Assembly: GCA_965233865.1 (NCBI GenBank)
Contig: OZ247587.1
Location: 640,001 to 704,000 of the forward strand
Length of the DNA stretch: 64,000 bases
DNA from: Candidatus Neptunichlamydia sp.
GTDB lineage: Bacteria; Chlamydiota; Chlamydiia; Chlamydiales; Simkaniaceae
Direction: 5' to 3'
Both the position numbers and the translations under genes were made by a program. Positions 13,478 through 41,439 of the stretch are shown here, piece after piece. The notes under the pieces are model-generated. The model was not told where the DNA came from and searched no databases. It saw nothing but the letters and a program-made list of their open reading frames with translations. The number at the start of each line of letters is the position of its first letter. The stretch's first letter is position 1.

Positions 13478-16400
13478 GTGCTAAATGTACAGCCCTCGAC
13501 ACATTTTAAAACGCCGCAAAACCTCCAAGCCCCCTCTAGTGACCACTCATGTGGTTATAGCTCTTTAGAAAGCTCCTCATCCACTTCTCCGCTTTCAAGA
13601 CCATTACCTTTAAGGCTCCCAAAAGCAAAATACCAAAAACTGTTTGCTGGTAGATCACATGAACCTCAAAAAAGACTAACTGCCAACAATAAACACATCC
13701 GAATCCTACAAACACAAATCAACAAAAAAATCCAAGGTAGCTATTTTTTCACTCCAGGGAAGCAAGAAGACGATCACTTCCAGAAAGTCTTCATAGATTT
13801 TTTCCGTGGCCTGCGTGGTGGAGAAACCTTGGTAAATTCTGCAGGAGAATCTTTAGCCAGGGGATTTGTTACTTATGATGATGTCTGCAATATCTATACA
13901 ACCGAACCAATAAAGGATGATGACAATGGATCATGGGATTTTTCAACCATCTATTCTCCGACTGACCAACTGATTGAAGAACTCAGCCAAATTCTTGAAG
14001 AAGAATACGGCCTCAAAGGACAGTTTCTTAAATCTTTGAGTAAATCCGGACAAAAAATTGGCAATGCGTTTCAACTCGAGACTCGCGACACCTGCCTTCG
14101 AGAGTTCCCTATCTTTCCCAGGGTATTCCCCCGTTGCATAGATACCTTGAAGGGGATATTTAGCAGCCTTTTGATAGAAGAATGGCTAAAGCAAGACATC
14201 GAAGAAATAAAAATCTATCTCAACGAAATTGACTACATAGATCGACGTGTACCTGGTTGTGAAGAGCTAAACAATGCAATCACTTTATGGACAACAGCAA
14301 AGCACTACGCTCAACAGCAACAGCAAAGAGACATCGCTCTTAAAACAAAACACAAAAATGAGCTAAAAGATGACCTATGTGGTACTGCAATCTCTGGGGG
14401 ATTATCTTTTGTAACGGGCAATCCAAGCTTCGTTATTGGGAAAGCCGCTCAAACAATAATGAACTCTCTTGGCAATAAGATCGACCCTGAAGGAAGAGAC
14501 AAGAGAATACAAGTTCTCAAAATATTTGGGGGTGTTGGACTTGGAAGCACTCTTGGGGGCAACACTTGGGACCTTGGAACAGCTTTAGGAGTAGATTTAC
14601 TCGACCTTGTGACTAAGTCAGAAAAAACAGAAAAATCTGAAAGCGCTCTTAGAAACTTAAGCGGATCTGTACTCAAAGGCGTATTAACCAAAGATAAAAA
14701 GAAGCTCATCTGCCAAATACTCAGTTGTAGCGTAGCTGAAGCAGTGAATCAGCTTCCAGAGACTGATGAAAAAACATCGCTAGAGATGCGCATTGCACGG
14801 GCACTTTTAACAAATAGCGACATGCAATCTCACTACATCAATCAGTACGTAGACAAAAAGTTCAAAAAAGCTCCCAAGCAAACCTTAAGTGACGAAACTG
14901 CGGCAAAAGACCCTAATATTAGCAAGCCATCACAAGAAATAGAGATGCACGACCAGGCCCTTTACTTAAGACTAGTGGAAGAACAAAAGCAAAACAATCT
15001 CGCATTAAAGAAAGTTACTGAGAAACTAAATAACCCCCATTACTCAGAGTTTGGAAGCGCCGCAAATACACTGATAGAGAAAGAAGCTGGTGTTAAAGAA
15101 GCTCAGAAAAAATACGATAAAAAGCTCGCTATAGAGCGCAAAGTATTTGGACCAAGGAAAGAAATAAAAGCAGAGAAAAAAACAAAAAGCGCCAATAAGA
15201 ATCTTAAAAAAGCCAGTGGAGAAAAAGCTGTTGTTGACCAATTCATAAGCAACACAAGTAATGAAATCTCTAAACTACAAAAGAAGATATCAAGCAATAT
15301 TCAAGCACAAGCTGAGGCTAGCGCTCCCAAACACATAATCCCTCCAACGCCAGAGCTAAAAGCTCCTTTTGCTAAATCATCAAAAAAGACCAAGAACCAT
15401 CATGTGGCCTATTTCGATATGCAAGGGCAAAAACAGAGTCTTGGAAAATACAAAACAGCAGGAGATGCGAACCTTATCTCTGGAGCTTGGTCTCATTTTG
15501 AAGTCATTTCAAAAAACCTAGAGATGCGCTGTTATGCAGCCCAAGAGCAGCTTGTCTCTCAAGGAACACACGTAGATAACATTCCAGAAAGGCCAAAGCT
15601 AGAAAAGCCGCAATTCTCTGGAAATGACGCTTCTAAAAACCACCAAAAGATCCAAAAAACTCGCATACAAAATCAGAAAAAAGTAGAACAATACCTCACA
15701 CAGCTTGGAGATCTCTCTATAACGCCACTAGAAAAAACTGGCTTGACCAAAGGAGACATAAATCGTATAGCACGCGATATGACTCCAACAGCAAAGGATC
15801 CTAAAGAGCATGGCGTCTTCTATAAAGCATGGAGACTTCCAAAAAAAGGACTCGATAAAACAACAAACTTCTTAAAAAAGATAGGATTTACTGGAGAAAT
15901 AACAGTAGCCAATATGGACCTCTATAAAATGAAAGCTCTTAACCTTAGTGATCGCTATCTTCCAAAAGAAGCTCCAGTAAAAGCAATACCAATACCTAAA
16001 TACGGATGGGAACAACTTCAAGATCATCACCAGCAAGTCATAGCAAAGATTCTTGAAAAAAAGACAGTAGCACAAAAAGCACCCTCTAGAGCGCTAAATT
16101 ATGGTAAAGTATTTGGAAATGGTGTTGCTAATGGAGTACAGCTGCCTCCGACAGACCTCAATCATCTTGGTCGAAACAACGAACTTCCACGAGTAATTAT
16201 TCCTCAAAGGCAAATGCAAGTAGCAAGATTTTCTGGTTCTATGGAATTTGCCTTGATCGATGCAGAACGACAGTCAAAATTTGTAATGAGAGCCGCAAAT
16301 TCCGTAAAAAATGTTGCCGTTAATGACTTCACAAAAAGCGTTCCAAAAGGTAGTACTAAAGTTCTACGAGGCATCTGCACTTTAATGCTTCCAGATATGT

Positions 16401-17428
16401 CTGATATCCCAGGAGCAGAATGTCCAAAAAAGCACCTTAGAAAATTCTCCAACAATGCTCTATTCAAGTATGACAAGCTTGTACATATCAAGGATCCTCA
16501 TTCTTTCGTTGCAAAAGCTGGAGAGTTCGTTGGTGAGGTAATCTCTCTTGGAGGCATTGGCAGAGTGGCCAGAGTCGCAGAAGGCATCAGCATCCTCGGA
16601 ATGGCCAGTGAAGGCGGCGTAGTAGGCCTTGTTATGGCAGAAGTTCATGGAACAAATAAAATCTCTGGGGTAGCGTTTGGTTTTGGTGGAGGAGCCGTCG
16701 CAGGGTCAATACCTATAGCGTTTAGAGCGCTGAAGCCTATGAGAGCCACTAGCCCACTGCAGGATAGGGCCCTGAATCTTTCTATATCAAGAAATGAAGC
16801 AGGCATGCAGCTACTAGAAAACCGCGCTCTGCGATGTGGATTTGTAAGTGATAAAACTGTTGAGAATCTTGCTGGTAGAGAAATCGCCTATATAAAACCC
16901 TTCGAGATGTTATACGTTAAAAAAGGTCCAAAGCTTGAGTGGTGGAAGGCTGCAAGCCCAAAGATTGATCATCTTAAGCGAATAGCTAAAACACCAAAAA
17001 AATTTTATGGTTCCCTGACAAGAGAGTTTGGATCCCAAAATTTATCAGAACTTCAGATTCGCAGGGTCTTGGACTATTCTGGATTTAAGTCTTTTGAGAA
17101 TCCAAAGTATTTTCCTGCTCAATATGTAGCAGAGTTTGCAAAGAAAAATGCAGGTATTGTTTTTAGAAAACCTGGGACCATATACAAAGAAAACATCCTC
17201 ATCAGAATCTGCTCAGGTCTGCGTAACGAGAATCCAGTGACTGCAATTATTGAGGGTAAACAGATGAATGGTACGATGAGGCAACAAACGCATTATGTGG
17301 TTCAAACAAAGGGAAATTTAAAACGTACAATTGATGATAGATGGGTTAGAGCAGATGCTCTTAACAAGGAAAATCAAGCACTAACACATATTCCATTGAG
17401 CGAATATCAATTTAAGGGGTGGGAATAA
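13478..17428 (+). CDS. Large hypothetical protein, polymorphic-toxin/effector-like
   Basis: 1316-aa ORF; Ser-rich N-terminus, glycine-zipper hydrophobic segments, Lys-rich coiled coil, C-terminal ..RQQTHYVVQTKG..THIPLSEYQF; start uncertain. Confidence 0.6.
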   Translation: MLNVQPSTHFKTPQNLQAPSSDHSCGYSSLESSSSTSPLSRPLPLRLPKAKYQKLFAGRSHEPQKRLTANNKHIRILQTQINKKIQGSYFFTPGKQEDDHFQKVFIDFFRGLRGGETLVNSAGESLARGFVTYDDVCNIYTTEPIKDDDNGSWDFSTIYSPTDQLIEELSQILEEEYGLKGQFLKSLSKSGQKIGNAFQLETRDTCLREFPIFPRVFPRCIDTLKGIFSSLLIEEWLKQDIEEIKIYLNEIDYIDRRVPGCEELNNAITLWTTAKHYAQQQQQRDIALKTKHKNELKDDLCGTAISGGLSFVTGNPSFVIGKAAQTIMNSLGNKIDPEGRDKRIQVLKIFGGVGLGSTLGGNTWDLGTALGVDLLDLVTKSEKTEKSESALRNLSGSVLKGVLTKDKKKLICQILSCSVAEAVNQLPETDEKTSLEMRIARALLTNSDMQSHYINQYVDKKFKKAPKQTLSDETAAKDPNISKPSQEIEMHDQALYLRLVEEQKQNNLALKKVTEKLNNPHYSEFGSAANTLIEKEAGVKEAQKKYDKKLAIERKVFGPRKEIKAEKKTKSANKNLKKASGEKAVVDQFISNTSNEISKLQKKISSNIQAQAEASAPKHIIPPTPELKAPFAKSSKKTKNHHVAYFDMQGQKQSLGKYKTAGDANLISGAWSHFEVISKNLEMRCYAAQEQLVSQGTHVDNIPERPKLEKPQFSGNDASKNHQKIQKTRIQNQKKVEQYLTQLGDLSITPLEKTGLTKGDINRIARDMTPTAKDPKEHGVFYKAWRLPKKGLDKTTNFLKKIGFTGEITVANMDLYKMKALNLSDRYLPKEAPVKAIPIPKYGWEQLQDHHQQVIAKILEKKTVAQKAPSRALNYGKVFGNGVANGVQLPPTDLNHLGRNNELPRVIIPQRQMQVARFSGSMEFALIDAERQSKFVMRAANSVKNVAVNDFTKSVPKGSTKVLRGICTLMLPDMSDIPGAECPKKHLRKFSNNALFKYDKLVHIKDPHSFVAKAGEFVGEVISLGGIGRVARVAEGISILGMASEGGVVGLVMAEVHGTNKISGVAFGFGGGAVAGSIPIAFRALKPMRATSPLQDRALNLSISRNEAGMQLLENRALRCGFVSDKTVENLAGREIAYIKPFEMLYVKKGPKLEWWKAASPKIDHLKRIAKTPKKFYGSLTREFGSQNLSELQIRRVLDYSGFKSFENPKYFPAQYVAEFAKKNAGIVFRKPGTIYKENILIRICSGLRNENPVTAIIEGKQMNGTMRQQTHYVVQTKGNLKRTIDDRWVRADALNKENQALTHIPLSEYQFKGWE

Positions 17429-18459
17429 TGATACCTGAGCCTGATAAGTTGGAAGAAGAAGAGAAAAAGGAACTTAGGGAATTTTACCCTTTATTCATAG
17501 CTGAAAAAATTATTGAATTAACTCCAGAGATTAATGAACAACCACGCACAAAGATTACAGATTTCTACCCTCTATGCACAGCAATCTGGAAAATTTCCAA
17601 CGCAGAATACCAAGAGCGCTTCTGGGTAAGGCAAGAGCCTCCTATGTTGCATGCAGATAACTATATGGAAACGCTTGAAACTTTTCTATCTAATGGAGAG
17701 GCTGTTCTTTTGGCTAATGATGCTGAAAGAATTTCTATGACACCCAAGCAACGCGAGATGCTGCAGAAGCTATATGATATAGTCGATGATTTTGATGGGG
17801 ATGGTGATACACCAGACGATTCTGGATACGGCTTTAACGATTCTGCAATCATTGCTGACTATAGGTGGCATAAGATCCAAGCCTACGCCAAGCTCGTTTA
17901 TGAAGAGATCACCGGAGAAGACCTCGATGAATGGGAAAGATCGCGTCCTCCAAGAGCAAAGCGCCCTGAGATAAAGCAAAGAGACGCAACAACAGAAGAG
18001 ATTCGTGCAGAAGAGAAAAAAATCTACCCAACCTTCCTAATTGAACAATTTAAAAGCCGTCAGACTATTCCTGAGACGAGTCTTTATCATTACCTGATCA
18101 ACATGTATTTAGAAATTTGGACAGTATCTAACCAGGGATACCAAGAGCGTTTTTGGGTTAGGAAAGAGTTTCCTCTATACGATGAAGAAAATTGCATGAA
18201 AACGTGTTCTAGGTATCTATGTGATGTGGTGACAGTGATACGTGGTGCTGAAGATAACAAGCTTGATGTGACAATGAAGCAATGCTCTATGCTCAAGAAG
18301 CTCTCTGAAATGATCAAAAATTTCAAAAAAGATCCTAATAGGCCAGATGATCCAGGGTATGGTATTAATGATAGTGAAATTATTGCCTGTGAAAAGTGGC
18401 AAGAAATAAGAGACTATGCCAAGTGTGTCTATGAAGAGCTAACAGGAGAAAAGTCTTAG
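17428..18459 (+). CDS. Tandem-duplicated domain protein, candidate immunity protein
   Basis: ATG overlaps upstream stop (TAATG 17426-17430); two copies of IWxxSNxxYQERFWVR...KQxxMLxKL...PDDxGYGxNDSxIIA..W.xI..YAKxVYEExTGE. Confidence 0.6.
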   Translation: MIPEPDKLEEEEKKELREFYPLFIAEKIIELTPEINEQPRTKITDFYPLCTAIWKISNAEYQERFWVRQEPPMLHADNYMETLETFLSNGEAVLLANDAERISMTPKQREMLQKLYDIVDDFDGDGDTPDDSGYGFNDSAIIADYRWHKIQAYAKLVYEEITGEDLDEWERSRPPRAKRPEIKQRDATTEEIRAEEKKIYPTFLIEQFKSRQTIPETSLYHYLINMYLEIWTVSNQGYQERFWVRKEFPLYDEENCMKTCSRYLCDVVTVIRGAEDNKLDVTMKQCSMLKKLSEMIKNFKKDPNRPDDPGYGINDSEIIACEKWQEIRDYAKCVYEELTGEKS

Positions 18460-18513
18460 CTTCGGAGATCTCCAAGACGAGTACAAAGACTCTGTTTTAT
18501 CTCGGGTATGTTA

Positions 18514-19338
18514 GGTTGTGTTGAGAAATTTCCATAAATGGTGCAAGCTGACTTCCTGAAGAAGGAGATCTATATGCTATACCCGCATAAAATAAATGAC
18601 CACGCCTGGTCGAAACTTTACGAATATCTGAGTAATTACCCCAAAATACATACAAATAACAAAGAGAAAACTCGTTGCTTTGTAGAGGCTGTATTTTGGA
18701 TTGCCAAGAGTGGAGCACAATGGCGTTTGCTACCAAAGGAATATGGAGACTAGAATGCCGTCTATCATCGTTTTGCAGACTGGGCTGAACATGGTGTGTG
18801 GTACAAGATGCTCTACTATTTTTCAAATGATCCAGACATGGAATATATTATGATCGACAGTACAGTCCTCCGCGCTCATGCCTGTGCCGCAGGAGCCAAT
18901 AAAAAAAAACCGGAGGTCAAGACGAGCAGGCCTTAGGTCGGTCCTGCGGAGGTTTTACGACTAAAATCCATAGTATCTGTGATGCATTAGGTAATCCACT
19001 TGATTTTATTTTAACAGGTGGTCAAGCAGCTGATTGTCATCAAGCTATTCCTTTGCTCAAAGGTAGGGATTACAAAGGCTACGACAGCAATGCAATCATT
19101 GATCATGTAAAGAGCATCGGAGCTGTTGCCATCATTCCCTCAAAGAAAAATCGCATTGATCATCGAGAGCATGATAAAGACATATATAAAGAACGACACA
19201 AAATCGAATGTTTATTTGGCTTCCTCAAACATTATAGACGATTGTTTTCTCGGTTCGAGAAGTTAGCATCAAGGTTCAAGGCATTCCTTCATTTTATCGC
19301 GGCTCTCCAATGGTTAAAGTAAATTTCTCAACACAACC
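18514..19338 (+). mobile_element. IS5-family element, copy 1 (defective)
   Basis: 18-bp perfect IRs GGTTGTGTTGAGAAATTT flanked by TA; orfA (SGAQWRLLP, MIDST) has TGG>TAG at 18751; orfB has an 18-bp deletion relative to copy 2. Confidence 0.93.
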
Positions 19339-19359
19339 TATTCCTCCTAATAAATATTT

Positions 19360-21263: not shown

Positions 21264-21743
21264 CTATCCTGCATTGACATTTTCTTTCTTGCTTATTTCT
21301 TTAAATACTTTTGTTATTTTTTGTAGATGCTCGACTACTCCCTCTAATGGAACGCACTCTGATATTTCATTTTTATATATTCTGCTTTTACAAACTGGGC
21401 AGCCTATTCCATTGCCTTGATCTACTGTTTGTCTACTTGATACAAGCGATCTGATTGTTTCTCTATTTAAAACATGCCCACATTTAAACACTCCTGGGAT
21501 GTTGTCCAGATTAAAAGGCTCCATAGTCACAGGGTCCAACGCATCAGGAGGAAGTTCCTCGCATAATGGCCTGAGTTCTTCTACTATCCCATCATTCTTT
21601 ATCTTGCTGGCCTTTACATCACGAACCTCAGATTCTTGAAGTTTCAATTGATCTCGCATTTCAGCTTCCTGCGTTTCAAGCTGCTGTCTGACAAATTGTT
21701 CAAAGTAAATAGTGTTTGATTGTAGACTTAATATGGCTGTCAT
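21264..21743 (-). CDS. Coiled-coil + RING/U-box-like protein (paralog 1, no partner gene)
   Basis: LRPLCEELPPDALDPVTMEP...CGH...CPVC; ATG at 21743 preceded by a TATAAT element shared with paralogs. Confidence 0.8.
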   Translation of the reverse strand: MTAILSLQSNTIYFEQFVRQQLETQEAEMRDQLKLQESEVRDVKASKIKNDGIVEELRPLCEELPPDALDPVTMEPFNLDNIPGVFKCGHVLNRETIRSLVSSRQTVDQGNGIGCPVCKSRIYKNEISECVPLEGVVEHLQKITKVFKEISKKENVNAG

Positions 21744-21933
21744 CTTGTTTATCCTCTTACCTTTATTATAACATACTCTGCACGGAATCATTGAATGAAA
21801 TCGTTCAAAATCAAAAATATTTTAGACCTTCGTTTCATAAAAATTCAACGCTTGCTGTTTACTGGATTTATATTTGCTGGTAAAGCTACAAAGGGATAAA
21901 ATGAGAATTAGACGAAAACAATGGATGATAATC

Positions 21934-22248
21934 ATGGACTGGACGCAAGCACTTACTGTTATAGGAGTTTTCATTGGTGGGTTTATCTACATGATGAACA
22001 AAATAGACGCAAATAAGAAAGACACTGATACAAAAATGGAGTCTCATCAAAAAGAAAATAACACACGCTTTAATGGCATAGAAAACCGTTTAACTGCCAT
22101 GGAAGTTGAAGTTAAAAACATCAATCAAAGAATCGATGACTTTAAACATGAAACAAGCCAAAGACTCTCTACGATTGAAGGGTATCTAGTCCCAAAGAAG
22201 GTATTTCACTTTGAGGAAAATAAAGACGAAGAACCCAAAGAGAACTAA
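21934..22248 (+). CDS. Small protein with N-terminal TM helix and coiled coil
   Basis: MDWTQALTVIGVFIGGFIYMM then heptad-rich RFNGIENRLTAMEVEVKNINQRID; start approximate. Confidence 0.65.
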   Translation: MDWTQALTVIGVFIGGFIYMMNKIDANKKDTDTKMESHQKENNTRFNGIENRLTAMEVEVKNINQRIDDFKHETSQRLSTIEGYLVPKKVFHFEENKDEEPKEN

Positions 22249-22372
22249 GACATCTATCATGCTAACTGATAATGAAATGCTACAAAAACTTCAGGAATCT
22301 TTAGAGCTAAGATTCGATGATCAGAAGGATTTATTTCTGTACGAATGCCCAAAAAATAGCAATCAGCTTTTG

Positions 22373-22813
22373 CTATTTACTCTCTGAAGAATTTTCTATC
22401 TCAGGAAGCTCATTTCTATGATGATCTAGGGCTTCTTTTTTGATCTTTTTAACAGCTTCTTTCCAGGTTGGTCTATTCAAGAATTTAATGCTTTCAACAT
22501 AGGCATCAGCTTTATCAAGCTCTTCAGCAAATTTGTAATATCTAAAGGGAGGCTGCACTTTTACTCTATGATCCTTGGAAATACTATAGACGATATTACG
22601 AAGCTCTATCCCAACATGCGGCACCTTGATTTTTACTGTGCTTTGAGCTATCCACTTTGATTTCACTTTGCTGTAGGGATAAATCTCTAGGACTTCTGTT
22701 TCCTCCATAATTGAAGCCTCTTCAGCTGTGGATGGTGCTTCATTAGCTTTTTCCTTTTTCTTTCGTTTAATTCTCTCTTTTGCCGTTTCTGCGACTGTGC
22801 TCTCTTGAGTCAC
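22373..22813 (-). CDS. Hypothetical protein, weakly SpoVG-like nucleic-acid-binding
   Basis: Last gene of the 4-gene minus-strand cluster; VKIKV..GIELRNI....V.VQPP.R......Y...IKF pattern loosely like SpoVG. Confidence 0.45.
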   Translation of the reverse strand: MTQESTVAETAKERIKRKKKEKANEAPSTAEEASIMEETEVLEIYPYSKVKSKWIAQSTVKIKVPHVGIELRNIVYSISKDHRVKVQPPFRYYKFAEELDKADAYVESIKFLNRPTWKEAVKKIKKEALDHHRNELPEIENSSESK

Positions 22814-22856
22814 TTTTTTACCCTGTTACTCCACTGTAAATTTTTAGTTGTAAGTT

Positions 22857-23201
22857 CTAATCATAATCTTTGAATTGCGCTCTATCTGACAATGCTTTTG
22901 GTCGTTTGAAACTTCTTGGCAGTACAGAATCTCTACTACTGAAGTTCATAGATTTCGCAACTTTAGGACGAGCTTCTTTGGCTATAATAATATTGCCTTC
23001 AAGATTTGCACTATCAAGTCTTCTGATTGCTAGTTTTGCTTCGGAATCTACCAGCATTGTAACAAATCCAAAGCCACGGGATACTTGCGTTTCATGATCT
23101 ACGATGACTTTTGCGGACAATACTTTTCCATATATGCTGAAGAGTTCTTTGAGTTGAGATGATGTTACGCTTAAGGGGAGGTTTTTTACGAATATATCCA
23201 T
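22857..23201 (-). CDS. RRM (RNP-1) RNA-binding protein
   Basis: RNP2 IFVKNL and RNP1 RGFGFVTM, C-terminal EARPK. Confidence 0.92.
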   Translation of the reverse strand: MDIFVKNLPLSVTSSQLKELFSIYGKVLSAKVIVDHETQVSRGFGFVTMLVDSEAKLAIRRLDSANLEGNIIIAKEARPKVAKSMNFSSRDSVLPRSFKRPKALSDRAQFKDYD

Positions 23202-23212
23202 GCTTTATCCTT

Positions 23213-23728
23213 TTAAACTTCGCTATTAATCATCCTTATGGCCTTGAGGTACCTTCCAAAGTGAGCTTTTTGTAGATAATTTAAGAGCTTTCTTCTTGCA
23301 AAGACATATCTTACTAAGAGCGCTCTCATGCTTAAGAACTCCTTAGTTTCTTTATCAACGCCATGCATGTCTATTTCTAATCTTTGAATTTTTTCGGTAT
23401 ATACGCCAATTTCCACGTCGCATGAAGCATTGTCCTGAGGAGATGTTTGCCACCGTTTGATGATGTCGCGCATGTCAACGATGTCAATACTATCAACCGT
23501 GCTTGATTTATTAGAAAGAGGCTTGCTTTTCTTGACTCTACTCGGAGGGACAAAATTTCGGATGGTTTTTTCGCAGTAGAAATTCTTGCCACTTACTTTC
23601 TTGCTTGGTTGAAAAACTCTTCTAGAAAGATAGCCTTTGAATAAATCTATAGAACAGCCAATGATCTGCGCTGCTTGCTTGGTGCTGATTAACTGACTTG
23701 TTTGTTGCGATTGTGTTTTCTCTGACAA
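23213..23728 (-). CDS. HTH DNA-binding domain fused to ribosomal protein S15-like domain
   Basis: LISTKQAAQIIGCS (excisionase/MerR-like HTH); C-terminal DNASCDVEIGVYTEKIQRL...RRKLLNYLQK....RY...I matches uS15; likely TTG start at 23728 after AAGGAG. Confidence 0.7.
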   Translation of the reverse strand: MSEKTQSQQTSQLISTKQAAQIIGCSIDLFKGYLSRRVFQPSKKVSGKNFYCEKTIRNFVPPSRVKKSKPLSNKSSTVDSIDIVDMRDIIKRWQTSPQDNASCDVEIGVYTEKIQRLEIDMHGVDKETKEFLSMRALLVRYVFARRKLLNYLQKAHFGRYLKAIRMINSEV

Positions 23729-23771
23729 GCTCTCACTTCTCCTTCTTAAAAAAGAAAGATACTTCCATAAA

Positions 23772-24512
23772 TCACGGTTTAGGAACAAGCTTTTCGTAAG
23801 CTGTCTTTGCAGCAATTTGCTCGGCTTGCTTTTTTGAGGTGCTTTCTCCTGTAGAGAGGTTATCGTCATTGAGGGTTAATTTTACTTTGAACATTGGAGC
23901 ATGATCAGGGCCGCTTCGTTCTGCGAGTGTGAAGATTAGTTGTCCCATACGATTTTTTTGGCAAAACTCATTCAAGAGGCTTTTCCAGTTCTTTTCAGCG
24001 AATTCTAAGGAATCCTCCAGCTCAATATTGAATTTATCAAGAAACATGTTGTGTATTGGCTCTAGAGATTTCCCAGCGTCGAGATATACAGCAGTTAGGA
24101 TTGCCTTAAAACATTTTCCTTTGAATGGAGCGATCTGTGCATCTGGGTTGATTAAGCCATGAGGGCATTGATATAGGTAGTGATTAAAAACCTGAAGTTT
24201 GTCGATGTACTTAACACAAGCATCGTTGCTAATATGCTTCGTTAGCATGGTGTTTTTTATGGACTTGTCTGCAGAGTGATGGTTCGCTTCGATATAGTCT
24301 GCGATAGCAAGCTGCAAAAGATAGTTTCCACGCCATACGAAATCTTCATTGGTTTCTCCGTCGTCGCTGACCATCCCCACCAAAGGAAAGCTAGAGTCCA
24401 TAAATGCTCTTGTTAGTAGATCCGTATCGTTGAATTTATGAGAGAGAGACTTTTCGATATTAGGAATGTTTTTCTGAAGGCTTGAGACCATTTGTATTGC
24501 TAGATTTGTCAT
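23772..24512 (-). CDS. RNase III-like protein with degenerate active site and intact dsRBD
   Basis: LSHKFNDTDLLTRAF; signature NEDFVWRGN (vs NERLEFLGD); GKCFKAILTAVYLD (vs ADxxEAxxGAxYLD); dsRBD KSLLNEFCQK..GPDHAPMF..SKKQAEQIAA. Confidence 0.85.
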   Translation of the reverse strand: MTNLAIQMVSSLQKNIPNIEKSLSHKFNDTDLLTRAFMDSSFPLVGMVSDDGETNEDFVWRGNYLLQLAIADYIEANHHSADKSIKNTMLTKHISNDACVKYIDKLQVFNHYLYQCPHGLINPDAQIAPFKGKCFKAILTAVYLDAGKSLEPIHNMFLDKFNIELEDSLEFAEKNWKSLLNEFCQKNRMGQLIFTLAERSGPDHAPMFKVKLTLNDDNLSTGESTSKKQAEQIAAKTAYEKLVPKP

Positions 24513-24701
24513 AAGAGGGGCCTTTTATTTTGTTTTGGGTGAAAGATTAACACAAAGAGAAATTTTGGGGAGATCTCCAAAAAACAAGGCTCAGATTTGC
24601 GCTGTGTTGCGCTGTTGGAGACTTAGAGTTGTGTTGGGATTGCGAGAAGATAAATCAGCTTAAAACGTGATTAAATGAGAATATGCGTGTTTAAGTATAA
24701 T

Positions 24702-24738
24702 TAGTTGGGATTTGGAAGGCTTTAATGTGAATTTAGTT
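24702..24738. repeat. Cassette downstream repeat, copy 1
   Basis: TAGTTGGGATTTGGAAGGCTTTAATGTGAATTTAGTT, 35/37 identical to 28032-28068. Confidence 0.85.
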
Positions 24739-24755
24739 AAAGTTTACGAAAAATA

Positions 24756-25937
24756 TCAAGTTCCAAAGTGACTATTGAAGGTGTTAAATAATTCTGGTCT
24801 ATTTGCAAAGCGCCCTTGTCCAATAAGAATATCTCGAAGTGATTCATTTACTTGTTCTCCATCATCATCAAATTGGGGGTAATCGTCCTCAATTATTGAT
24901 TTAATAAACCCTTTCCCACGCAACATATGACCTGGATGGAGATTTGCATAGTTTTCAACTGTGTCTTGGAAGTTTTCCTCCCCAAGACCTGAATTTATTC
25001 CAATATGACCGAGACGAGGACGTTTACCAAATTCTCTCCTAGCTGCATTCTCGTCATTTTCTATATTTCTGGCCTCTTCTAGGTCTGAATATAATGATGG
25101 AATTCCAGATGGATGAATCATTGGCAATGGAATAGATCTTCTGTTTATGGACTCTTGAGGATCTTTTAAAAAGGCTCTTTGATGGCCGTGTTCATGAAGC
25201 AAGTCATCTACAGTTCTTGGTTGTTTACCATAGAACGTACGTCCTTCATAATCATGACGCATTCTTGTGGAATCTTCTGATTCTTCCTCGTCACTAGGAA
25301 ATAAAAGTTCACCGCTATTAAGTTGTGATTGAGTAAATGGTGCCTTCTTTCCAGGAGGTTCGTATATCTCTAGATGATGTAAGGGCTCCGTTCCGTATCC
25401 AGTAACCATGTCTTTTTGCTCGAATTGTCCATCTGCTCCTTGCTTAACTCCGAAACCAAACCTATTACTGTGCGAGAATGGTAGCTTTGATTTTTGATGT
25501 TTTTCTATGTCATCCAGTAAAACTTTAAAATAACTTGGAGCTCCCTTAGATGCTATTCTTGCATCTTCCATAATCGCGTCTTTATCTTCAGAATCACCAC
25601 TAAAATCAAATAAGGATTCGTATCTATCTGTCAATACGTCTGAGAGGGAGCGCTGAGATGGTAATGGAAACTTCGCCTGCCTAGCTGGGAGGCCTCCTGT
25701 ATTGAAAGTATAGTTTAACTCCTTGGAATCTAAAGGAAATTTTGATTGACGTGTGGGGACTGATTCTGGACCAACATGCACGACATTTTTTCTTATTGGG
25801 CGTGAAGAGTCCACGTAGACTACATTTTCCCTCACTCTTTGAGGGGAATCAACGTAAACTACACTTTCTCTTTTTGTACCTTTTTTTTGCATTTTCAGGT
25901 TCAAGCGCTGCTGCTTTCTTCTTCGGTTGTGCTTCAT
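24756..25937 (-). CDS. HExxH zinc metallopeptidase-like protein (NleD/M91-like)
   Basis: LLHEHGHQ followed by EEARNIENDENAARREFGKRPRLGH; repetitive basic N-terminus; overlaps the upstream RING gene. Confidence 0.6.
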   Translation of the reverse strand: MKHNRRRKQQRLNLKMQKKGTKRESVVYVDSPQRVRENVVYVDSSRPIRKNVVHVGPESVPTRQSKFPLDSKELNYTFNTGGLPARQAKFPLPSQRSLSDVLTDRYESLFDFSGDSEDKDAIMEDARIASKGAPSYFKVLLDDIEKHQKSKLPFSHSNRFGFGVKQGADGQFEQKDMVTGYGTEPLHHLEIYEPPGKKAPFTQSQLNSGELLFPSDEEESEDSTRMRHDYEGRTFYGKQPRTVDDLLHEHGHQRAFLKDPQESINRRSIPLPMIHPSGIPSLYSDLEEARNIENDENAARREFGKRPRLGHIGINSGLGEENFQDTVENYANLHPGHMLRGKGFIKSIIEDDYPQFDDDGEQVNESLRDILIGQGRFANRPELFNTFNSHFGT

Positions 25938-26388
25938 TATTTTTTACCGTTTTTTTAAAAATTTTTGTTACTTTTTCAAGATGTTCTACTGTTTCATCAA
26001 ATGACTGATCATACAAGAAAAAATAGCCTCTTGTTTCTGTTCGACAAACTGGACAAGGTATCATGTCGTCTTTTGCCAACCCCATTGATTTTGCAACACT
26101 AACAGCCGTTTCAGAGCTTAATGAATGGCTACAACGCATCACTAAAGGAGTTCTCATCGGTTCATATGTCACTGGATCTAAAGCACAGTCAGGCAATTCT
26201 TCACAAAGTGGTCTTAGTTCTTCTACGATTCTATTATTCGTTATATTCTTAGCTTGCACTTCCCCCATCTCAGCTTCCCGTTCTTTTAGTTGGTCTCGCA
26301 TTTCGGATTCTTGTGTTTCCAGCTGACTACGCATGGCATTTTCAAAATAAGAAATGGTTCTCGTTGGTGTAATTGCTATGGATGACAT
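25849..26388 (-). CDS. Coiled-coil + RING/U-box-like protein (paralog 2)
   Basis: LRPLCEELPDCALDPVTYEPMRTP...CSH...CPVC; AAGGAG RBS; basic C-terminal extension. Confidence 0.8.
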   Translation of the reverse strand: MSSIAITPTRTISYFENAMRSQLETQESEMRDQLKEREAEMGEVQAKNITNNRIVEELRPLCEELPDCALDPVTYEPMRTPLVMRCSHSLSSETAVSVAKSMGLAKDDMIPCPVCRTETRGYFFLYDQSFDETVEHLEKVTKIFKKTVKNNEAQPKKKAAALEPENAKKRYKKRKCSLR

Positions 26389-26405: not shown

Positions 26406-27431
26406 TTAACCTGCAAAAGCTGTGTTATAGCCTAGCCTAGTTGGTTGTATCTGTTCTCCCCTTTCATCATTCTCTTGAATTCCTTGAAATGTTTTCATCA
26501 CATCTTCTAACCAGCTTTTTGAGAATTTCCCATCGCCTTTTACTGAGCTCCAAAGAGAGCGTACTGGGTAATTATTTCCTTTTCTCGTTATAAAAACATG
26601 GTCTTCTGGCCTATCTTCATTGGCAAAAACAGTTGTCCCATCTGGAAGATCAAAATCTTGTAATTTATTATAGTCGATTTCGCCACGATTTCCAGGCGGA
26701 TTTAAAACATCTATAAGCCTTTCACCATAGGAAAGGCTGTATTTTCCAGGTTCTGTAGCTCTTTGAAGGCGTTCTTGTACTTCTTCTTTTTTCAGCTTGC
26801 CTCTTGAGATTAAGTCATAGCAAACCCCTTCAGCACAGTTCATCGTCTTTGGTTTTGAGCCTTTTTCGCTGTTATGGTCACTTCCATACTCGTCTGTAAC
26901 CCACCTTCCAAACGGTCTGGAGGAATAATCTTCATGGTCAGCAATAGGACCCCAGGCTACGTTCTTGTAATATTCAGAGTCATCTGGGTTTGTGAATGGT
27001 GTTCCTGGTTCTGATTCTCTTGAAGAGATTTGATCAAAAAGTCCTTCTTCAAACTCTCTATATTGCGGTTGTAGAGCAGAATGCAAACTCTGACTATCTG
27101 GAATCTGATCAAACATTTCCTCTTCTAACCCTCTGAATCGAGGTAGAGTCTGTAATAGATTTATTTGAGAATCTTCTAGCTCTAAGCTAGCATCATATCC
27201 ATATGGAAAACCAATATTACGGTTTGGTTCCTCATCTGAATCATAGTCCGGTGCATTTTTTGTAGGCATGGGTGTTTTATAGATAGTTGAAGTAGGTCGA
27301 AGAGGTGGAGGAGGTACTGGCCTGTATGAATATTCTCTAAGAGTTGCCATCCACTTTGCCATATCAATAGGCTGGTCTCCCATTTCTGGATCATATCTAG
27401 CAAACTGCTTTTTTCTATAATTACTCGGCAT
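26406..27431 (-). CDS. Papain-like (Cys-His) domain protein
   Basis: MNCAEGVCYDL...PDGTTVFANEDRPEDHVFITRKG..PVRSLWS; paralog of 28073-29083; start overlaps the end of RING paralog 3. Confidence 0.6.
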   Translation of the reverse strand: MPSNYRKKQFARYDPEMGDQPIDMAKWMATLREYSYRPVPPPPLRPTSTIYKTPMPTKNAPDYDSDEEPNRNIGFPYGYDASLELEDSQINLLQTLPRFRGLEEEMFDQIPDSQSLHSALQPQYREFEEGLFDQISSRESEPGTPFTNPDDSEYYKNVAWGPIADHEDYSSRPFGRWVTDEYGSDHNSEKGSKPKTMNCAEGVCYDLISRGKLKKEEVQERLQRATEPGKYSLSYGERLIDVLNPPGNRGEIDYNKLQDFDLPDGTTVFANEDRPEDHVFITRKGNNYPVRSLWSSVKGDGKFSKSWLEDVMKTFQGIQENDERGEQIQPTRLGYNTAFAG

Positions 27432-27822
27432 ATTTTTTAAAGATTCCGCTTATTTTTTTAAAAATTTCCACACAACCTTCTATAGGAATATATGGGTAAA
27501 GCATGTTGATTGTTGTTGAGGAGTTGCAAGATGGGCATTTTATTAAATCCTGCTTGTATAGCTTTTGTGTTTTAGCAATGCTCACAACTGTAGAAAGATT
27601 CAATGCGTGACCACACCTATATACTATACTTCTGTCTAAAGGCTCAAAAGTAACAGGGTCCAACGCGTCTGGAGGTAGTTCTTCGCACAAAGGCCTTAGT
27701 TCTTCAACAATCTTGCTATCTCTTGTCTGTCGTTCTTTATATCTCTCTTCAAACAATTCATCAATCGACATTGTTTGTGTTGCGACAGTAGTGCTGTTTT
27801 TTGGTGTGATTGATATGCTCAT
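27421..27822 (-). CDS. RING/U-box-like protein (paralog 3)
   Basis: LRPLCEELPPDALDPVTFEPL...CGH...CPSC; ATG at 27822 with AAGGAG RBS. Confidence 0.8.
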   Translation of the reverse strand: MSISITPKNSTTVATQTMSIDELFEERYKERQTRDSKIVEELRPLCEELPPDALDPVTFEPLDRSIVYRCGHALNLSTVVSIAKTQKLYKQDLIKCPSCNSSTTINMLYPYIPIEGCVEIFKKISGIFKKYAE

Positions 27823-28020
27823 CTTGTTCTCCTTGTGTCTATTATAACACATTTTGCACTGAATCGTAGCATGAATTCTTGTGTTTTTAAAAAATTTTTC
27901 ATGTAGAAATGCAGGGAGTATATCATGATAGGAATAACACGTATTTTGAATTTTTGATTCGTGCGCAAATCCGCCTGACCAAGAATAAAAAAAGAATGCT
28001 TTTTAGGGGTGGCCCCCTTT
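27820..28020 (-). repeat. Cassette upstream repeat (201 bp) with promoter and RBS, copy 1
   Basis: Ungapped match to 29521-29721 with about 19 mismatches by hand count; contains TGtTATAAT and AAGGAG on the minus strand. Confidence 0.9.
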
Positions 28021-28072: not shown

Positions 28073-29083
28073 TTATCGCATTTGTTGAAGAACAGGATCT
28101 GCAAAGGCTGTGTTGTAGCGAAGAGTTGTTTCTTTTCCATCCATTCCTTTCTCTTTGTAAAATTCATCTACAACGTCTTTTAGCCAACTTCGGGAAAAAT
28201 TACCGCTTCCCCGGTTTTTACTCCATAAAGAACGTACTGGATTACTCTCTCCAGTTCTTGTCATAAAAACATGGTCTCCTGGACTTTCGTCGTTTGCAAA
28301 TATAACAGATCCAGCAGGAATATTGTGTTTTCCAGATTGCACGTCATCATAGCTAACGGTTTTTCGAGTATCCTTAGGGTCAAGCACACTTAATAGACTG
28401 TCTGAATATGCGCGACCGACCGTTGGTCTCTTTTCTCCCCCCGGAAAATCAGCCGTAAGCCTTTCTCTGAGCTTTTCTTTATCTAGTTTTTCTCTTGAAA
28501 GAAGGTCGTAGCAAACACCTTCATAGCAATTCATCTTATTCGGTTTGTAATCGGAGTTTCCGTGAAGCCAGTCAGCAAATTGAGTTTGTTCTAGTCGGTC
28601 CGTGTTAATTGGCTCCCATTCGAGATTGTTGTAATATAGAGCTTCATCGGGTGGGGTTTCGCTTCTTTTTTGAAATGGGATTTTTCTTACGTCTTCTTGA
28701 AGATCTTCGGGACGGTAACGTCTTGCTGAACTAGATTTTGATCTTATGTTTTTGGGGAGTCCCCTTAAGTCTTCTTGTAAATCTTCGGGACGGTAACGTT
28801 CTTCCCCTAACCTTGAGTTTCTTGCTTCATATTCTGTTGTATATAAAGGCTTCATTGCTTTTTCGTATTCAGTCTCTACAGGATCGCCAGGGCGATAGTT
28901 TTGAAGCGCGTCCCTAAGTGAGACTTTATTTTCCCGTGCATCTTTTGCTCGTTGGTACATGTCTTTAAGGGTTACTTCGTCTATCTTGCCTTGTTCGTAG
29001 AGTCGGCCAAGACTACTAAGAATGCTCTCTTCTTCGCTTTCTAGATCTAGTGGTTGTTTAAGAGGATCAATGTAGTAGCTCAT
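28073..29083 (-). CDS. Papain-like (Cys-His) domain protein
   Basis: MNCYEGVCYDL...PAGSVIFANDESPGDHVFMTRTG..PVRSLWS; internal RYRPEDLQED x2; ATGA overlap with RING paralog 4. Confidence 0.6.
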   Translation of the reverse strand: MSYYIDPLKQPLDLESEEESILSSLGRLYEQGKIDEVTLKDMYQRAKDARENKVSLRDALQNYRPGDPVETEYEKAMKPLYTTEYEARNSRLGEERYRPEDLQEDLRGLPKNIRSKSSSARRYRPEDLQEDVRKIPFQKRSETPPDEALYYNNLEWEPINTDRLEQTQFADWLHGNSDYKPNKMNCYEGVCYDLLSREKLDKEKLRERLTADFPGGEKRPTVGRAYSDSLLSVLDPKDTRKTVSYDDVQSGKHNIPAGSVIFANDESPGDHVFMTRTGESNPVRSLWSKNRGSGNFSRSWLKDVVDEFYKEKGMDGKETTLRYNTAFADPVLQQMR

Positions 29084-29523
29084 GTGTTCTTCGCAAATAC
29101 CTTACTTATTTTTTCAAAAATTTCAACGCAGCCCTTTAGACTTACAGAAACAAAAAAATCATTTAGAACGGATTTATTCTTACATACCGGACAACTCATT
29201 AGGTCTTGTTGGCATAAATTGCTAGCCTTCGCAATAGCGACTATTGTCGAGGAATTTATAGTGTGACCACATCCATACGTTGCTGGCTTATAAAGAGGCT
29301 CCATGGTCACAGGGTCCAATGCATCATTAGGAATCTCCTCACAAAGTGGTCTCAACTCTTCTACAATCTTGCTGTCTCTTGCCTTTTCATACTTAAGCTC
29401 TCTTACTTCAGCTTCTCGTTCTTTTAATTCTGCTCGCGCTTCGGATTCTTGCGTTTCGAGCTGATCTCTGACAAATTGCTCAAAGTACATCGTGTTGTTT
29501 TGAATGCTTAATATGACGGACAT
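29080..29523 (-). CDS. Coiled-coil + RING/U-box-like protein (paralog 4)
   Basis: LRPLCEEIPNDALDPVTMEPLYKP...CGH...CPVC; ATG at 29523 with AAGGAG RBS. Confidence 0.8.
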   Translation of the reverse strand: MSVILSIQNNTMYFEQFVRDQLETQESEARAELKEREAEVRELKYEKARDSKIVEELRPLCEEIPNDALDPVTMEPLYKPATYGCGHTINSSTIVAIAKASNLCQQDLMSCPVCKNKSVLNDFFVSVSLKGCVEIFEKISKVFAKNT

Positions 29524-39144: not shown

Positions 39145-41439
39145 ATGAACTTTTACATCGAACCTTCAGTTATTGAAAAATATCCAGAATTGAAAGTGGG
39201 AATCCTTATTTTAAAGGGGATTGAAAACAAAGGGAATGCTGAAGAAATCTCAGAGCTTATGGATGCCACCTTTGGGAAAGTAAAGGCTCACTTTGAAGGA
39301 AAAGAACTCACGAAAGAGCCAAAAATTGCTGACTGGCGAGAAGCTTATAAAGCATTCGGATACAAACCCTCCTCTTACCGATGTTCCGCTGAAGCTCTAC
39401 TGCGACGGGTTATTGGAGGTAAAGAACTCCCGAGCATCAATCCTGTTGTCAACTTATATAACCTTATTTCTGTAAAGTATAGCCTCCCTGCAGGAGCGGA
39501 TGATCTGGACCATATCGATGGCGATATTCGACTTGCTATAGCAAAAGGAGGAGAACCTTTCACAACCCTAGGATCCCGCGAAGAAGCAAAAGCTCAAGAG
39601 GGCGAAATCATTTACCGCGATGATGCCGAAATCTTGTGTAAAGCGTGGAACTGGAGAGAGTGTGATAAGTCTAAAATCACCGAAGAGAGCAATAATATCT
39701 CTCTTGTTATCGAAGGGCTCGAGCATACGCGCCCAGGTGAAGTTGTAAAGGCGTTAAAAGAGCTCAGCACACTCATTCAAAAATATTGTAGCGGAAAAGC
39801 AGAGCTTTATTATCTAGATAAAGAGATTTCTAAAATGTGCGACGCTTCAAATCTTGAGAATCGCATGGTCGCTGTTGATATTCCTGAACCTGCCTACCAC
39901 TCCCACGAGTCATTCAAAACGCGTAAACAAAAGCTTAAAGAAATTCGCAATATGGGAGTGAATCCTTACCCCCATAAGTACGAGCCGACCCATCAAATGC
40001 ACGCCCTGCAAGACAAATACGAAGCCTCGGCCGTTGGAGATAGTGAAACAGCGAGCGCTGGAACAACCGACCTTGTTCGGGTTGCAGGCCGTCTTGTTCT
40101 CTTCCGCGCCATGGGGAAAAATGCATTCAGCCAAGTCCAAGATGAAACCGGGCGAATCCAAGTCATGTTTAACAAAGATCAGACCGAAGTCATCGGTCTT
40201 CCATCTGGAGAATCCCCACTTAAGTTCATTGAAAAAAAGCTTGATCTTGGAGATATTATCGGCATCGAAGGACACTCCTTCCGTACCCAGAAAGGAGAAT
40301 TGACCATCTTTGCAAAAAAAGTCATTCTCCTGTGTAAAACCCTTCTCCCTTTACCTGACAAACATGCCGGACTCGCCGACAAAGGGACTCGCTACCGAAA
40401 AAGATGGCTCGATTTAATTACAAACCCCGAAGCCGTTAAGAGGCTAAAAACACGAAGCTTTCTTGTGTCAAAAATCCGCCGCTATATGGAAGATCTTGAC
40501 TTCATAGAAGTCGAGACCCCAGTCCTTCAAAACATTTATGGCGGTGCAGAAGCACGTCCCTTTGTTTCAGAGCTCAACGCTCTCCACCAGACGATGTATT
40601 TGCGTATTGCCATTGAAATTTCACTAAAAAAGCTCATCGTTGGAGGACTCTCTCGCGTTTTTGAAATTGGAAAAGTCTATCGGAATGAAGGCATCGACCG
40701 GACGCATAACCCTGAGTTCACCATGCTCGAGTCCTATGCAGCTTATTGGGATTATAATGACGTGATGACCATGACTGAAAATCTATTTGCCTACCTCGCT
40801 AAAGAGCTATACGGAACAACTGAAATTGGAATGCGTAAGGATAAACAAGGAAATGAACATCCTATCGATCTGAAAACTCCTTGGAATCGACTCTCGATGA
40901 AAGATGCCATTAAGAAATATGGAAAAGTTGACCCTGATAAACTTTCAGATAGCGACATGAGAGCAAAACTCAAAGGAAAGATTGAAGATGCAAAACTTAA
41001 AAATGCTCCTCGTGGAAAACTCATTGCATTTCTCTTTGAAGAATTTGCAGAACATCATCTAATTCAGCCCCATCATATCATCGACCATCCCATCGAAACC
41101 ACTCCCCTCTGTAAACTCCATCGCGACCCTAAGCTCCGCGAAGAAAAATTTGTCGAACGCTTTGAATCCTTCATCCTCGGTTATGAGTTTTGCAATGCTT
41201 ACTCAGAGCTCAATGACCCTGAGCTTCAGCGACAGCTCTTAGAAGATCAAAACAATCTCCGAGAAGGAGGCGATGACGAGGCAAATCCCATGGATGAAGA
41301 GTTTATTGAAGCAATCTGTCAAGGGATGCCTCCAACTGGGGGGCTTGGGATTGGAATCGACCGCCTTGCTATGCTCTTTACTGACGCTTTTTCTATCCGC
41401 GATGTCGTCTATTTCCCTATGATGCGCCCCGAAGAATAG
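39145..41439 (+). CDS. lysS: Lysyl-tRNA synthetase (class II) with N-terminal B3/B4 editing-like domain
   Basis: N-terminal WREAYKAFG..SAEALLRRV..LPSINPVVNLYN..DLD (B3/4); then OB fold, YRKRWLDL, YRNEGID.THNPEF, GMPPTGGLGIGIDRL. Confidence 0.93.
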   Translation: MNFYIEPSVIEKYPELKVGILILKGIENKGNAEEISELMDATFGKVKAHFEGKELTKEPKIADWREAYKAFGYKPSSYRCSAEALLRRVIGGKELPSINPVVNLYNLISVKYSLPAGADDLDHIDGDIRLAIAKGGEPFTTLGSREEAKAQEGEIIYRDDAEILCKAWNWRECDKSKITEESNNISLVIEGLEHTRPGEVVKALKELSTLIQKYCSGKAELYYLDKEISKMCDASNLENRMVAVDIPEPAYHSHESFKTRKQKLKEIRNMGVNPYPHKYEPTHQMHALQDKYEASAVGDSETASAGTTDLVRVAGRLVLFRAMGKNAFSQVQDETGRIQVMFNKDQTEVIGLPSGESPLKFIEKKLDLGDIIGIEGHSFRTQKGELTIFAKKVILLCKTLLPLPDKHAGLADKGTRYRKRWLDLITNPEAVKRLKTRSFLVSKIRRYMEDLDFIEVETPVLQNIYGGAEARPFVSELNALHQTMYLRIAIEISLKKLIVGGLSRVFEIGKVYRNEGIDRTHNPEFTMLESYAAYWDYNDVMTMTENLFAYLAKELYGTTEIGMRKDKQGNEHPIDLKTPWNRLSMKDAIKKYGKVDPDKLSDSDMRAKLKGKIEDAKLKNAPRGKLIAFLFEEFAEHHLIQPHHIIDHPIETTPLCKLHRDPKLREEKFVERFESFILGYEFCNAYSELNDPELQRQLLEDQNNLREGGDDEANPMDEEFIEAICQGMPPTGGLGIGIDRLAMLFTDAFSIRDVVYFPMMRPEE

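Follow-up and report, generated by a model that had tools for sequence, protein, structure and literature searches.

Four clustered genes for predicted nucleic-acid-binding proteins in a Neptunichlamydia genome and relatives of three of them beside conjugative transfer genes

What brings together, on one strand of a chlamydial genome, four small genes whose products resemble RNase III, ribosomal protein S15, an RNA recognition motif (RRM) protein and possibly the regulator SpoVG? The genes, named here A, B, C and D, follow one another in the same orientation on the minus strand, at 22373-24512 of a 64-kb window of Candidatus Neptunichlamydia sp. (contig OZ247587.1, positions 640,001 to 704,000). 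The window is the whole stretch of 64,000 nucleotides that was analysed; coordinates refer to it unless G000, the genome holding it, is given, and G011 denotes a congener. The initial annotation of this DNA had read the locus as a mobile operon of repurposed RNA-binding proteins, lying in an accessory island and not in a housekeeping context, and had proposed a post-transcriptional module that might, for example, protect double-stranded RNA, regulate the neighbouring effector cassettes or interfere with RNA-based defence.

We give a probability of roughly one half to the following answer: A-D are a compact set of genes for neofunctionalised nucleic-acid binders, probably transcribed together, which came from the accessory-gene pool of conjugative elements and acts inside the bacterium. 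The genome (1.83 Mb, one contig) holds a canonical rpsO at G000 1715324-1715566 (89 aa) and a canonical rnc at G000 about 945.9-946.6 kb. A and B are therefore paralogues and not housekeeping genes, and the accessory character proposed for the island was borne out.

The four proteins and their families

The A protein shares its length and architecture, an RNase III domain and one double-stranded-RNA-binding domain (dsRBD), with class 1 RNase III (Rnc). It matched Pfam dsrm with an expect value (E) of 1.6e-19; the matches to Pfam Ribonucleas_3_3 (PF14622; 21.4 bits, cut-off 35) and to NCBIfam RNaseIII TIGR02191 (E 3.6e-27; 95.3 bits, equivalog cut-off 166.25) stayed below their cut-offs. Residues 9-242 aligned full-length with a solved bacterial RNase III in a search of PDB sequences (E 1.5e-13), and A was 27% identical to the product of the genome's own rnc. 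Unlike the class 1 enzymes, A has all four metal-binding carboxylates replaced. Its signature reads NEDFVWRGN against the canonical NERLEFLGD, and its second catalytic stretch reads KCFKA against D-x-x-E. For Aquifex RNase III, the account in PMC3867540 gives E40, D44, D107 and E110 as metal ligands, with E110 essential. The corresponding columns read V/N/K/K in A. An alignment of the window protein, 21 family clusters and three canonical enzymes showed V, M or I/N/K/K in 22/22 family rows, so that these replacements are invariant within the family, and retained carboxylates in 3/3 canonical rows. The RNA-contact motifs of the dsRBD, GPxH and KKxAEQ, were kept.

A word-indexed search of 5.8 billion proteins resolved the A family into 28 clusters (56-89% identity), with a clean score drop to the canonical enzymes, which scored at most 81 bits. 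In E. coli RNase III, exchange of the essential glutamate for Lys gives the classical binding-only mutant. Compared with such inactive point mutants, which bind double-stranded RNA (dsRNA), the replacements in A are natural and invariant across the 28 clusters. With its carboxylates replaced and its dsRBD motifs kept, A therefore belongs to a conserved pseudo-RNase III family, and it is predicted to bind dsRNA without cutting it. In the PHROGs collection A matched an unnamed family, and B, C and D matched nothing.

Gene B encodes a fusion of a winged helix-turn-helix (HTH) with an S15 fold. The Pfam model Ribosomal_S15 (PF00312) scored 39.2 bits, above its cut-off of 31, and was found in 6/6 family members; HTH_17 was found in 5/6 and MerR_1 in 4/6, and the window's B aligns with the HTH-scoring members. 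The AlphaFold2 (AF2) model of B, with a predicted local distance difference test (pLDDT) of 78.5, shows the winged HTH (residues 13-57), then a disordered linker and four helices (residues 83-170). S15 chains superposed on the model in Foldseek with a template-modelling score of about 0.8-0.85 and a root-mean-square deviation (rmsd) of about 2.3 Å. B thus shares the four-helix fold and the Pfam domain of ribosomal protein S15, but it is an element-encoded paralogue of 171 aa with an N-terminal winged HTH and lacks the stand-alone S15 architecture of about 89 aa. Its score against NCBIfam S15 (TIGR00952) was 45.8 bits, below the cut-off of 63.65. Aligned with the genome's 89-aa rpsO product, B partly kept the alpha1-alpha2 loop and showed a changed alpha2-alpha3 loop with a short insertion, a change that may bear on its contacts with 16S rRNA. 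The family comprises only four clusters in the 5.8 billion proteins, and the name '30S ribosomal protein S15', which one source gives to the G011 homologue, is probably a mis-annotation. The Foldseek matches of B include S15 in the Cas12k-TniQ-TnsC recruitment complexes 8bd5 and 8rdu (by their PDB titles). These complexes, as described in PMC9798831 and in the PDB titles, are a precedent for a mobile element that uses S15.

The C protein is a canonical single RRM (Pfam RRM_1, PF00076; E 8e-19), and RNP2- and RNP1-type motifs are legible in its translation. It resembles the small bacterial single-RRM proteins of NCBIfam NF058537 (Rbp_regulator, 'RNA-binding regulator') in having one RRM and a short tail; it differs from them in scoring below the family cut-off (83 bits against 100) and in being linked to a D-family gene. 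The genome holds three other RRM genes, and the one at G000 ~213 kb is, like C, tied to a D-family gene.

Gene D matched no Pfam or NCBIfam family. Its own family, nine clusters in the 5.8 billion proteins, has KERIK-x-KKKE as an invariant motif at the N-terminus, together with an acidic linker that varies and a core that is conserved. In the AF2 model (mean pLDDT 62.9) the core reached 70-86 and showed four strands and a C-terminal helix. Compared with 48,161 PDB chains, the core matched SpoVG best (2i9z_A; Z 6.6, rmsd 5.0, 85/87 residues aligned). Foldseek placed SpoVG at rank 7 (E 0.66) and returned nothing for the D model at E ≤ 0.001, and an Atlas search, taken as a lead only, ranked a SpoVG-domain cluster 13th. 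When 1.84 billion proteins were searched with a profile built from 18 D and D-like sequences, 93 representative clusters came up, most of them of 95-130 aa. Among the 70 of these representatives that were scanned, two gave weak Pfam SpoVG matches below the cut-off (E 0.008 and 0.015), and no other family recurred meaningfully. The D/D-like alignment (A6) leaves out the degraded D-like remnant of locus L027. Complex prediction for the D core with the RRM gave a score of 0.00 (mark 0.32). SpoVG is a nucleic-acid-binding regulator of Firmicutes and others, and it is the best structural match to the D core; D differs from it in lacking sequence-level membership, in its extra Lys-rich N-terminal extension and in its mobile-element context. 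A SpoVG-like fold for D is likely, if unproven. The domain calls of the initial annotation thus stood for the RNase III-like protein with dsRBD, the HTH-S15 fusion and the RRM protein, and were only weakly backed, by the Z of 6.6, for the SpoVG-like protein.

Partners of the genes beside transfer genes

Sub-sets of the cluster recurred elsewhere. In G011, two loci each carry A, then B, then an unrelated protein of 541-550 aa. Both are flanked by transposases, one has a resolvase, and one of the two A copies is frameshifted. A is thus a frequent partner of B in the genus, and the four-gene form is specific to G000. The divergent metagenome contig L040 carries, in one orientation, a homologue of D that has the Lys-rich motif (46% identity), one of B (36%), two short RRM-like genes and a further D-like gene, so that the order B, RRM, D-like recurs there at low identity. 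At 1548-1987 of this contig, two overlapping open reading frames (ORFs; 72 and 76 aa) have the look of degenerate RRMs, without the usual RNP1 aromatic residues. On contigs of other samples, different sequence flanked B where A and C-D would be expected, as at G000 1.22 Mb; this is a weak observation, at 80% likeness.

The D-like proteins form a second subfamily of about 120 aa without the N-terminal KERIK-x-KKKE motif. In nine scanned loci, a scan that leaves out L030 (G140; a match with seven stops), the D-like gene followed a DsbB-like gene in 7/9 and TraD (PF06412) in 6/9; an RRM gene came after it in 2/9, and it adjoined ardA in 1/9. D-like and RRM genes are adjacent at G000 ~213 kb and in G011. 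In the genome G003, one 11-kb stretch begins with an RRM remnant and D-like, DsbB-like and TraD genes, goes on with relaxase and PDDEXK genes and then has Xis-like, B-like, RecD-like helicase and coupling-protein-like genes. D-like, RRM and B-like genes occupied relaxase-flanking positions in G003, G011, G024 and elsewhere in G000. G000 itself retains at least six transfer-region remnants (~213, 222, 270, 615, 1095 and 1463-1468 kb) with relaxase, small TraD, DsbB-like, D-like and RRM genes, and among them only the relaxase at 1.46 Mb looks full length. An open frame of 69 aa in genome G008 (C56:12506-12697, locus L090) corresponds to the Lys-rich N-terminus of D and to no other part of it; a degraded D-like gene and a split resolvase are found 3 kb away.

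These positions suggest that B, C and D derive from transfer-proximal accessory genes of the conjugative elements of this chlamydial family. As sub-sets recur beside transfer genes, the cluster would be a condensed remnant of such accessory genes, reshuffled from conjugative elements into islands rich in insertion sequences (IS) and resolvase genes. Known relaxase-proximal accessory or 'establishment' genes (ArdA, SSB, PsiB) are likewise small nucleic-acid-binding or anti-defence genes flanking a relaxase; the protein families of A-D differ from theirs, and the window cluster has lost the link to transfer genes. Gene order, the conservation of which the initial annotation had named as a check, recurred for sub-sets and not for the full set of four. 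Its RNA module also needs widening: with relatives of B, C and D in DNA-transfer regions, the targets may just as well be DNA, single-stranded or structured, as RNA.

The distribution of the families was patchy. A-family genes (E ≤ 1e-35) were found in 2/400 scored genomes of the phylum, which are also 2/39 of the family (G000 and G011), and full-length B-family genes in 3/400 (G000, G011 and G003); the other 387 genomes that matched B did so through canonical rpsO only, at 65-73 bits. The D superfamily occurred in 9/39 family genomes, and a single D protein used as query matched 7/401 phylum genomes. Such a distribution of A, B and D is typical of accessory genes. Searching PLSDB plasmids by tblastn with B and D gave no match, scans of genome contigs with the D and A alignments gave no confirmed copy, and among viral contigs the A alignment had one weak partial match and the B alignment none.

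Against the G011 orthologues, A has a ratio of non-synonymous to synonymous substitution (dN/dS) of 0.047 and B one of 0.143, at dS above 1.2. Both genes are under purifying selection in this comparison, and the ratio near 1 that the initial annotation had named as speaking against its module was not seen.

Layout, duplication and surroundings of the locus

With the chosen starts, the A/B, B/C and C/D gaps measure exactly 43, 11 and 43 bp, which agrees with the short gaps first noted, and the features of the region are collected in Table 1. The start of B was set at the TTG at 23728, because its homologues (169-171 aa) begin there and an AAGGAG lies 10 nt upstream. A longer B frame of 218 aa, opening at the first ATG inside A, overlaps A and gets no support from the homologues; in G011 the sequence upstream of the B start reads in another frame. 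A purine-rich ribosome-binding site precedes each of A, B and C. Inside the A-D cluster, the terminator scan made no call on the minus strand, and the weak hairpin 3' of D was read by eye. Judged from this layout, A-D are probably co-transcribed.

Table 1. Features of the A-D cluster and its surroundings (window coordinates)
Feature	Position	Strand	Description
Gene A	23772-24512	-	pseudo-RNase III with dsRBD, 246 aa
Gene B	23213-23728	-	winged-HTH and S15-fold fusion, 171 aa, TTG start
Gene C	22857-23201	-	single-RRM protein, 114 aa
Gene D	22373-22813	-	Lys-rich N-terminal motif and candidate SpoVG-like core, 146 aa, GTG start
Region upstream of A	24513-24755	-	proximal ~110 nt conserved at two G011 loci (alignment)
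Weak hairpin and T-run	22350-22376	-	just 3' of D; not called by the terminator scan
Gene E	21874-22248	+	124 aa, membrane/coiled-coil-like, convergent, weak Pfam matches only
Stretch identical to second copy	21792-24719		0 differences across E, D, C, B, A and gaps (2.9 kb)
Serine recombinase (resolvase)	29757-30299	-	Pfam Resolvase 7e-38 and HTH_7; 5.2 kb upstream of cluster
Left IS copy	18512-19340		DDE_Tnp_1_2
Right IS copy	30469-31315		DUF4096; inverted relative to left copy

Upstream of A, a promoter-like TTGATA-18-TAAATT was seen at 24759-24730; promoter-like sites were not enriched (6 found, 8.1 expected from shuffles). Folding of the 243 nt upstream of A was not significant on either strand (z -1.55 and -1.53), and Rfam found no family in the whole window. 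The stretch 24530-24706 upstream of A recurs with 78-82% identity at G000 ~1.206 and ~1.758 Mb and as a 98% identity copy at G000 1.224 Mb. It accompanies B even without A, and it may be a shared promoter or leader.

The mobile setting proposed at first was confirmed by a second copy, the IS copies and the resolvase. The window segment 21552-25650 recurs inverted at G000 185692-189776, 475 kb away. All 76 differing alignment columns (substitutions and gaps) between the two copies lie in the flanks. The four-gene form was recently duplicated or homogenised. Further B sequence is present at G000 1.223 Mb, as a copy with an altered C-terminus and other neighbours, without A, C or D, and at G000 1.268 Mb, as a fragment. 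Apart from its place near the cluster, which the initial annotation had noted, a resolvase also adjoins a G011 A-B pair and a G008 D-like remnant. The IS has about 17 genome copies of ~848 bp, 96-100% identical to each other; it is of IS4/IS5 type with two ORFs (DUF4096 and DDE_Tnp_1_2).

The neighbours of the cluster are repeated cassettes. An expanded family of small RING/U-box-like proteins with the motif EELRPLCEELP is encoded at 21264-21791, 25849-26388, 27421-27852 and 29080-29553 and at many other loci of the genome, each gene being paired with one for a larger unknown protein (393, 341 or 336 aa). Such cassettes occur in G000 at ~180-190 kb, 660-672 kb, 1.21-1.23 Mb and 1.26-1.29 Mb. 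Gene E recurs at several U-box cassette loci and is probably part of these cassettes instead of the A-D cluster. Two large ORFs (1316 and 346 aa) without a Pfam family, at 13478-18459 (+), immediately precede the left IS. Further on, at 39100-41439 (+), a 779-aa class II aminoacyl-tRNA synthetase has tRNA-synt_2, an OB fold and an N-terminal B3/4 domain, an unusual fusion.

Competing explanations, proposed action and significance

Several results weigh against a bacterial nucleic-acid-handling set taken from conjugative elements. The full A-B-C-D order was seen only in this genome, and the window cluster lies between two inverted IS copies without an adjoining relaxase, TraD or coupling-protein gene, its nearest mobile genes being the IS and the resolvase. 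Truncated B copies in the genome and the frameshifted A copy in G011 show that members of these families also degenerate. Neither Rfam nor folding of the region upstream of A yielded a structured RNA candidate near the cluster. For the window's own B, no HTH family scored at E ≤ 1. The margin for D was weak, the next PDB chain after SpoVG reaching Z 5.4. The SpoVG sequence model matched 0/9 D-family members and nothing in the genome at E ≤ 10, and the D-family profile had no match among PDB sequences. The cassettes of small RING/U-box-like and larger unknown proteins around the cluster, putative effector cassettes, would fit a host-directed role as well.

That last point leads to the main competing explanation, in which A-D are secreted effectors that target a eukaryotic host. 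By binding dsRNA of the host or of the bacterium, A would blunt RNA interference or dsRNA sensing, the Lys-rich motif of D would be a nuclear localisation signal, and B and C would bind host nucleic acids. The surrounding cassettes, which recur many times in the genome, speak for this, as does KERIK-x-KKKE, which is invariant in the first D subfamily and missing from the conjugation-linked D-like subfamily; a viral model for dsRNA-binding proteins (TIGR04238, E 7e-10) also hits the dsRBD of A. Viruses are known to suppress RNA silencing with dsRBD proteins that do not cleave. However, the operons in which relatives of B, C and D are found hold relaxase, TraD and coupling-protein genes, a setting of the bacterial cytoplasm, A is nearest to bacterial class 1 RNase III and not to eukaryotic proteins, and the HTH of the B family is of the bacterial excisionase/MerR type. 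We consider secreted effectors unlikely. Chance adjacency, in which IS and resolvase shuffling joined unrelated mobile-element cargo that is kept or lost independently, we also regard as doubtful. The partner sets do vary (A-B only in G011, B-like without A or an intact RRM in G003, B alone at G000 1.22 Mb), the other-sample contigs with B and other sequence for A and C-D point weakly the same way, and the region is a mosaic of repeats. Against this, B, RRM and D-like genes come together again on L040 at 36-46% identity, and D-like and RRM genes recur in a third architecture. Since the families are so rare (four B and nine D clusters in the 5.8 billion proteins), such recurrence is hard to obtain by chance. 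All four proteins are, moreover, predicted nucleic-acid binders, and their genes are tightly spaced with ribosome-binding sites.

The ardA gene beside one D-like gene raises the further thought of an anti-defence or defence system, of the abortive-infection or toxin-antitoxin-like kind. Anti-defence functions are described as over-represented among plasmid genes near the transfer origin (PMC11541004). RNA processing that depends on RNase III could, in principle, be blocked by a dead form of the enzyme. But PADLOC models matched 0/4 proteins at E ≤ 0.01, A-D contain no nuclease, toxin or NTPase domain, and no defence system was identified nearby; a defence role is thus very unlikely. A more specific form of the conjugative origin is a conjugative 'establishment' kit of captured RNA-binding folds, in which A, as a dominant-negative RNase III, would shield the element's RNA duplexes from the RNase III of the recipient, and B, C and D would assemble on a structured RNA of the element or on the transferred single strand and control early gene expression. 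As a complete scheme, we hold it to be rather improbable.

If the cluster is a set of nucleic-acid binders from the conjugative accessory pool, it most likely acts in the bacterial cytoplasm on the element's own nucleic acids or their expression. A would form dimers as RNase III does and bind dsRNA uncut; RNA duplexes would thereby be shielded or sequestered, or the host RNase III would meet a competitor. B would bind DNA through its winged HTH, and its S15-fold domain may hold structured RNA or DNA, or serve oligomerisation. C, through its RRM, and D, through its SpoVG-like core and Lys-rich tail, would bind single-stranded RNA or DNA. The targets would be RNA or the transferred DNA strand. 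The binding of nucleic acids by each protein, the targets and the joint action are all inferred.

Each kind of domain in the cluster is known. In the open-licence literature, no bacterial pseudo-RNase III family, no HTH-S15 fusion and no SpoVG or RRM genes on conjugative elements were found described; a paper that combined SpoVG with conjugative terms had used only the ribosome-binding site of spoVG. A description of the D family was not found there either. The analysis defines three unnamed or mis-named families, namely a dead bacterial RNase III, an HTH-S15 fusion and a candidate SpoVG-like family without a Pfam model, and ties them to the conjugative elements of obligate intracellular bacteria, whose gene transfer is little understood. 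For studies of dsRNA sequestration in bacteria, the dead RNase III would be a natural tool. Should these proteins work jointly, mobile elements would be seen to recruit folds from the ribosome and from RNA processing as nucleic-acid-handling factors of their own.

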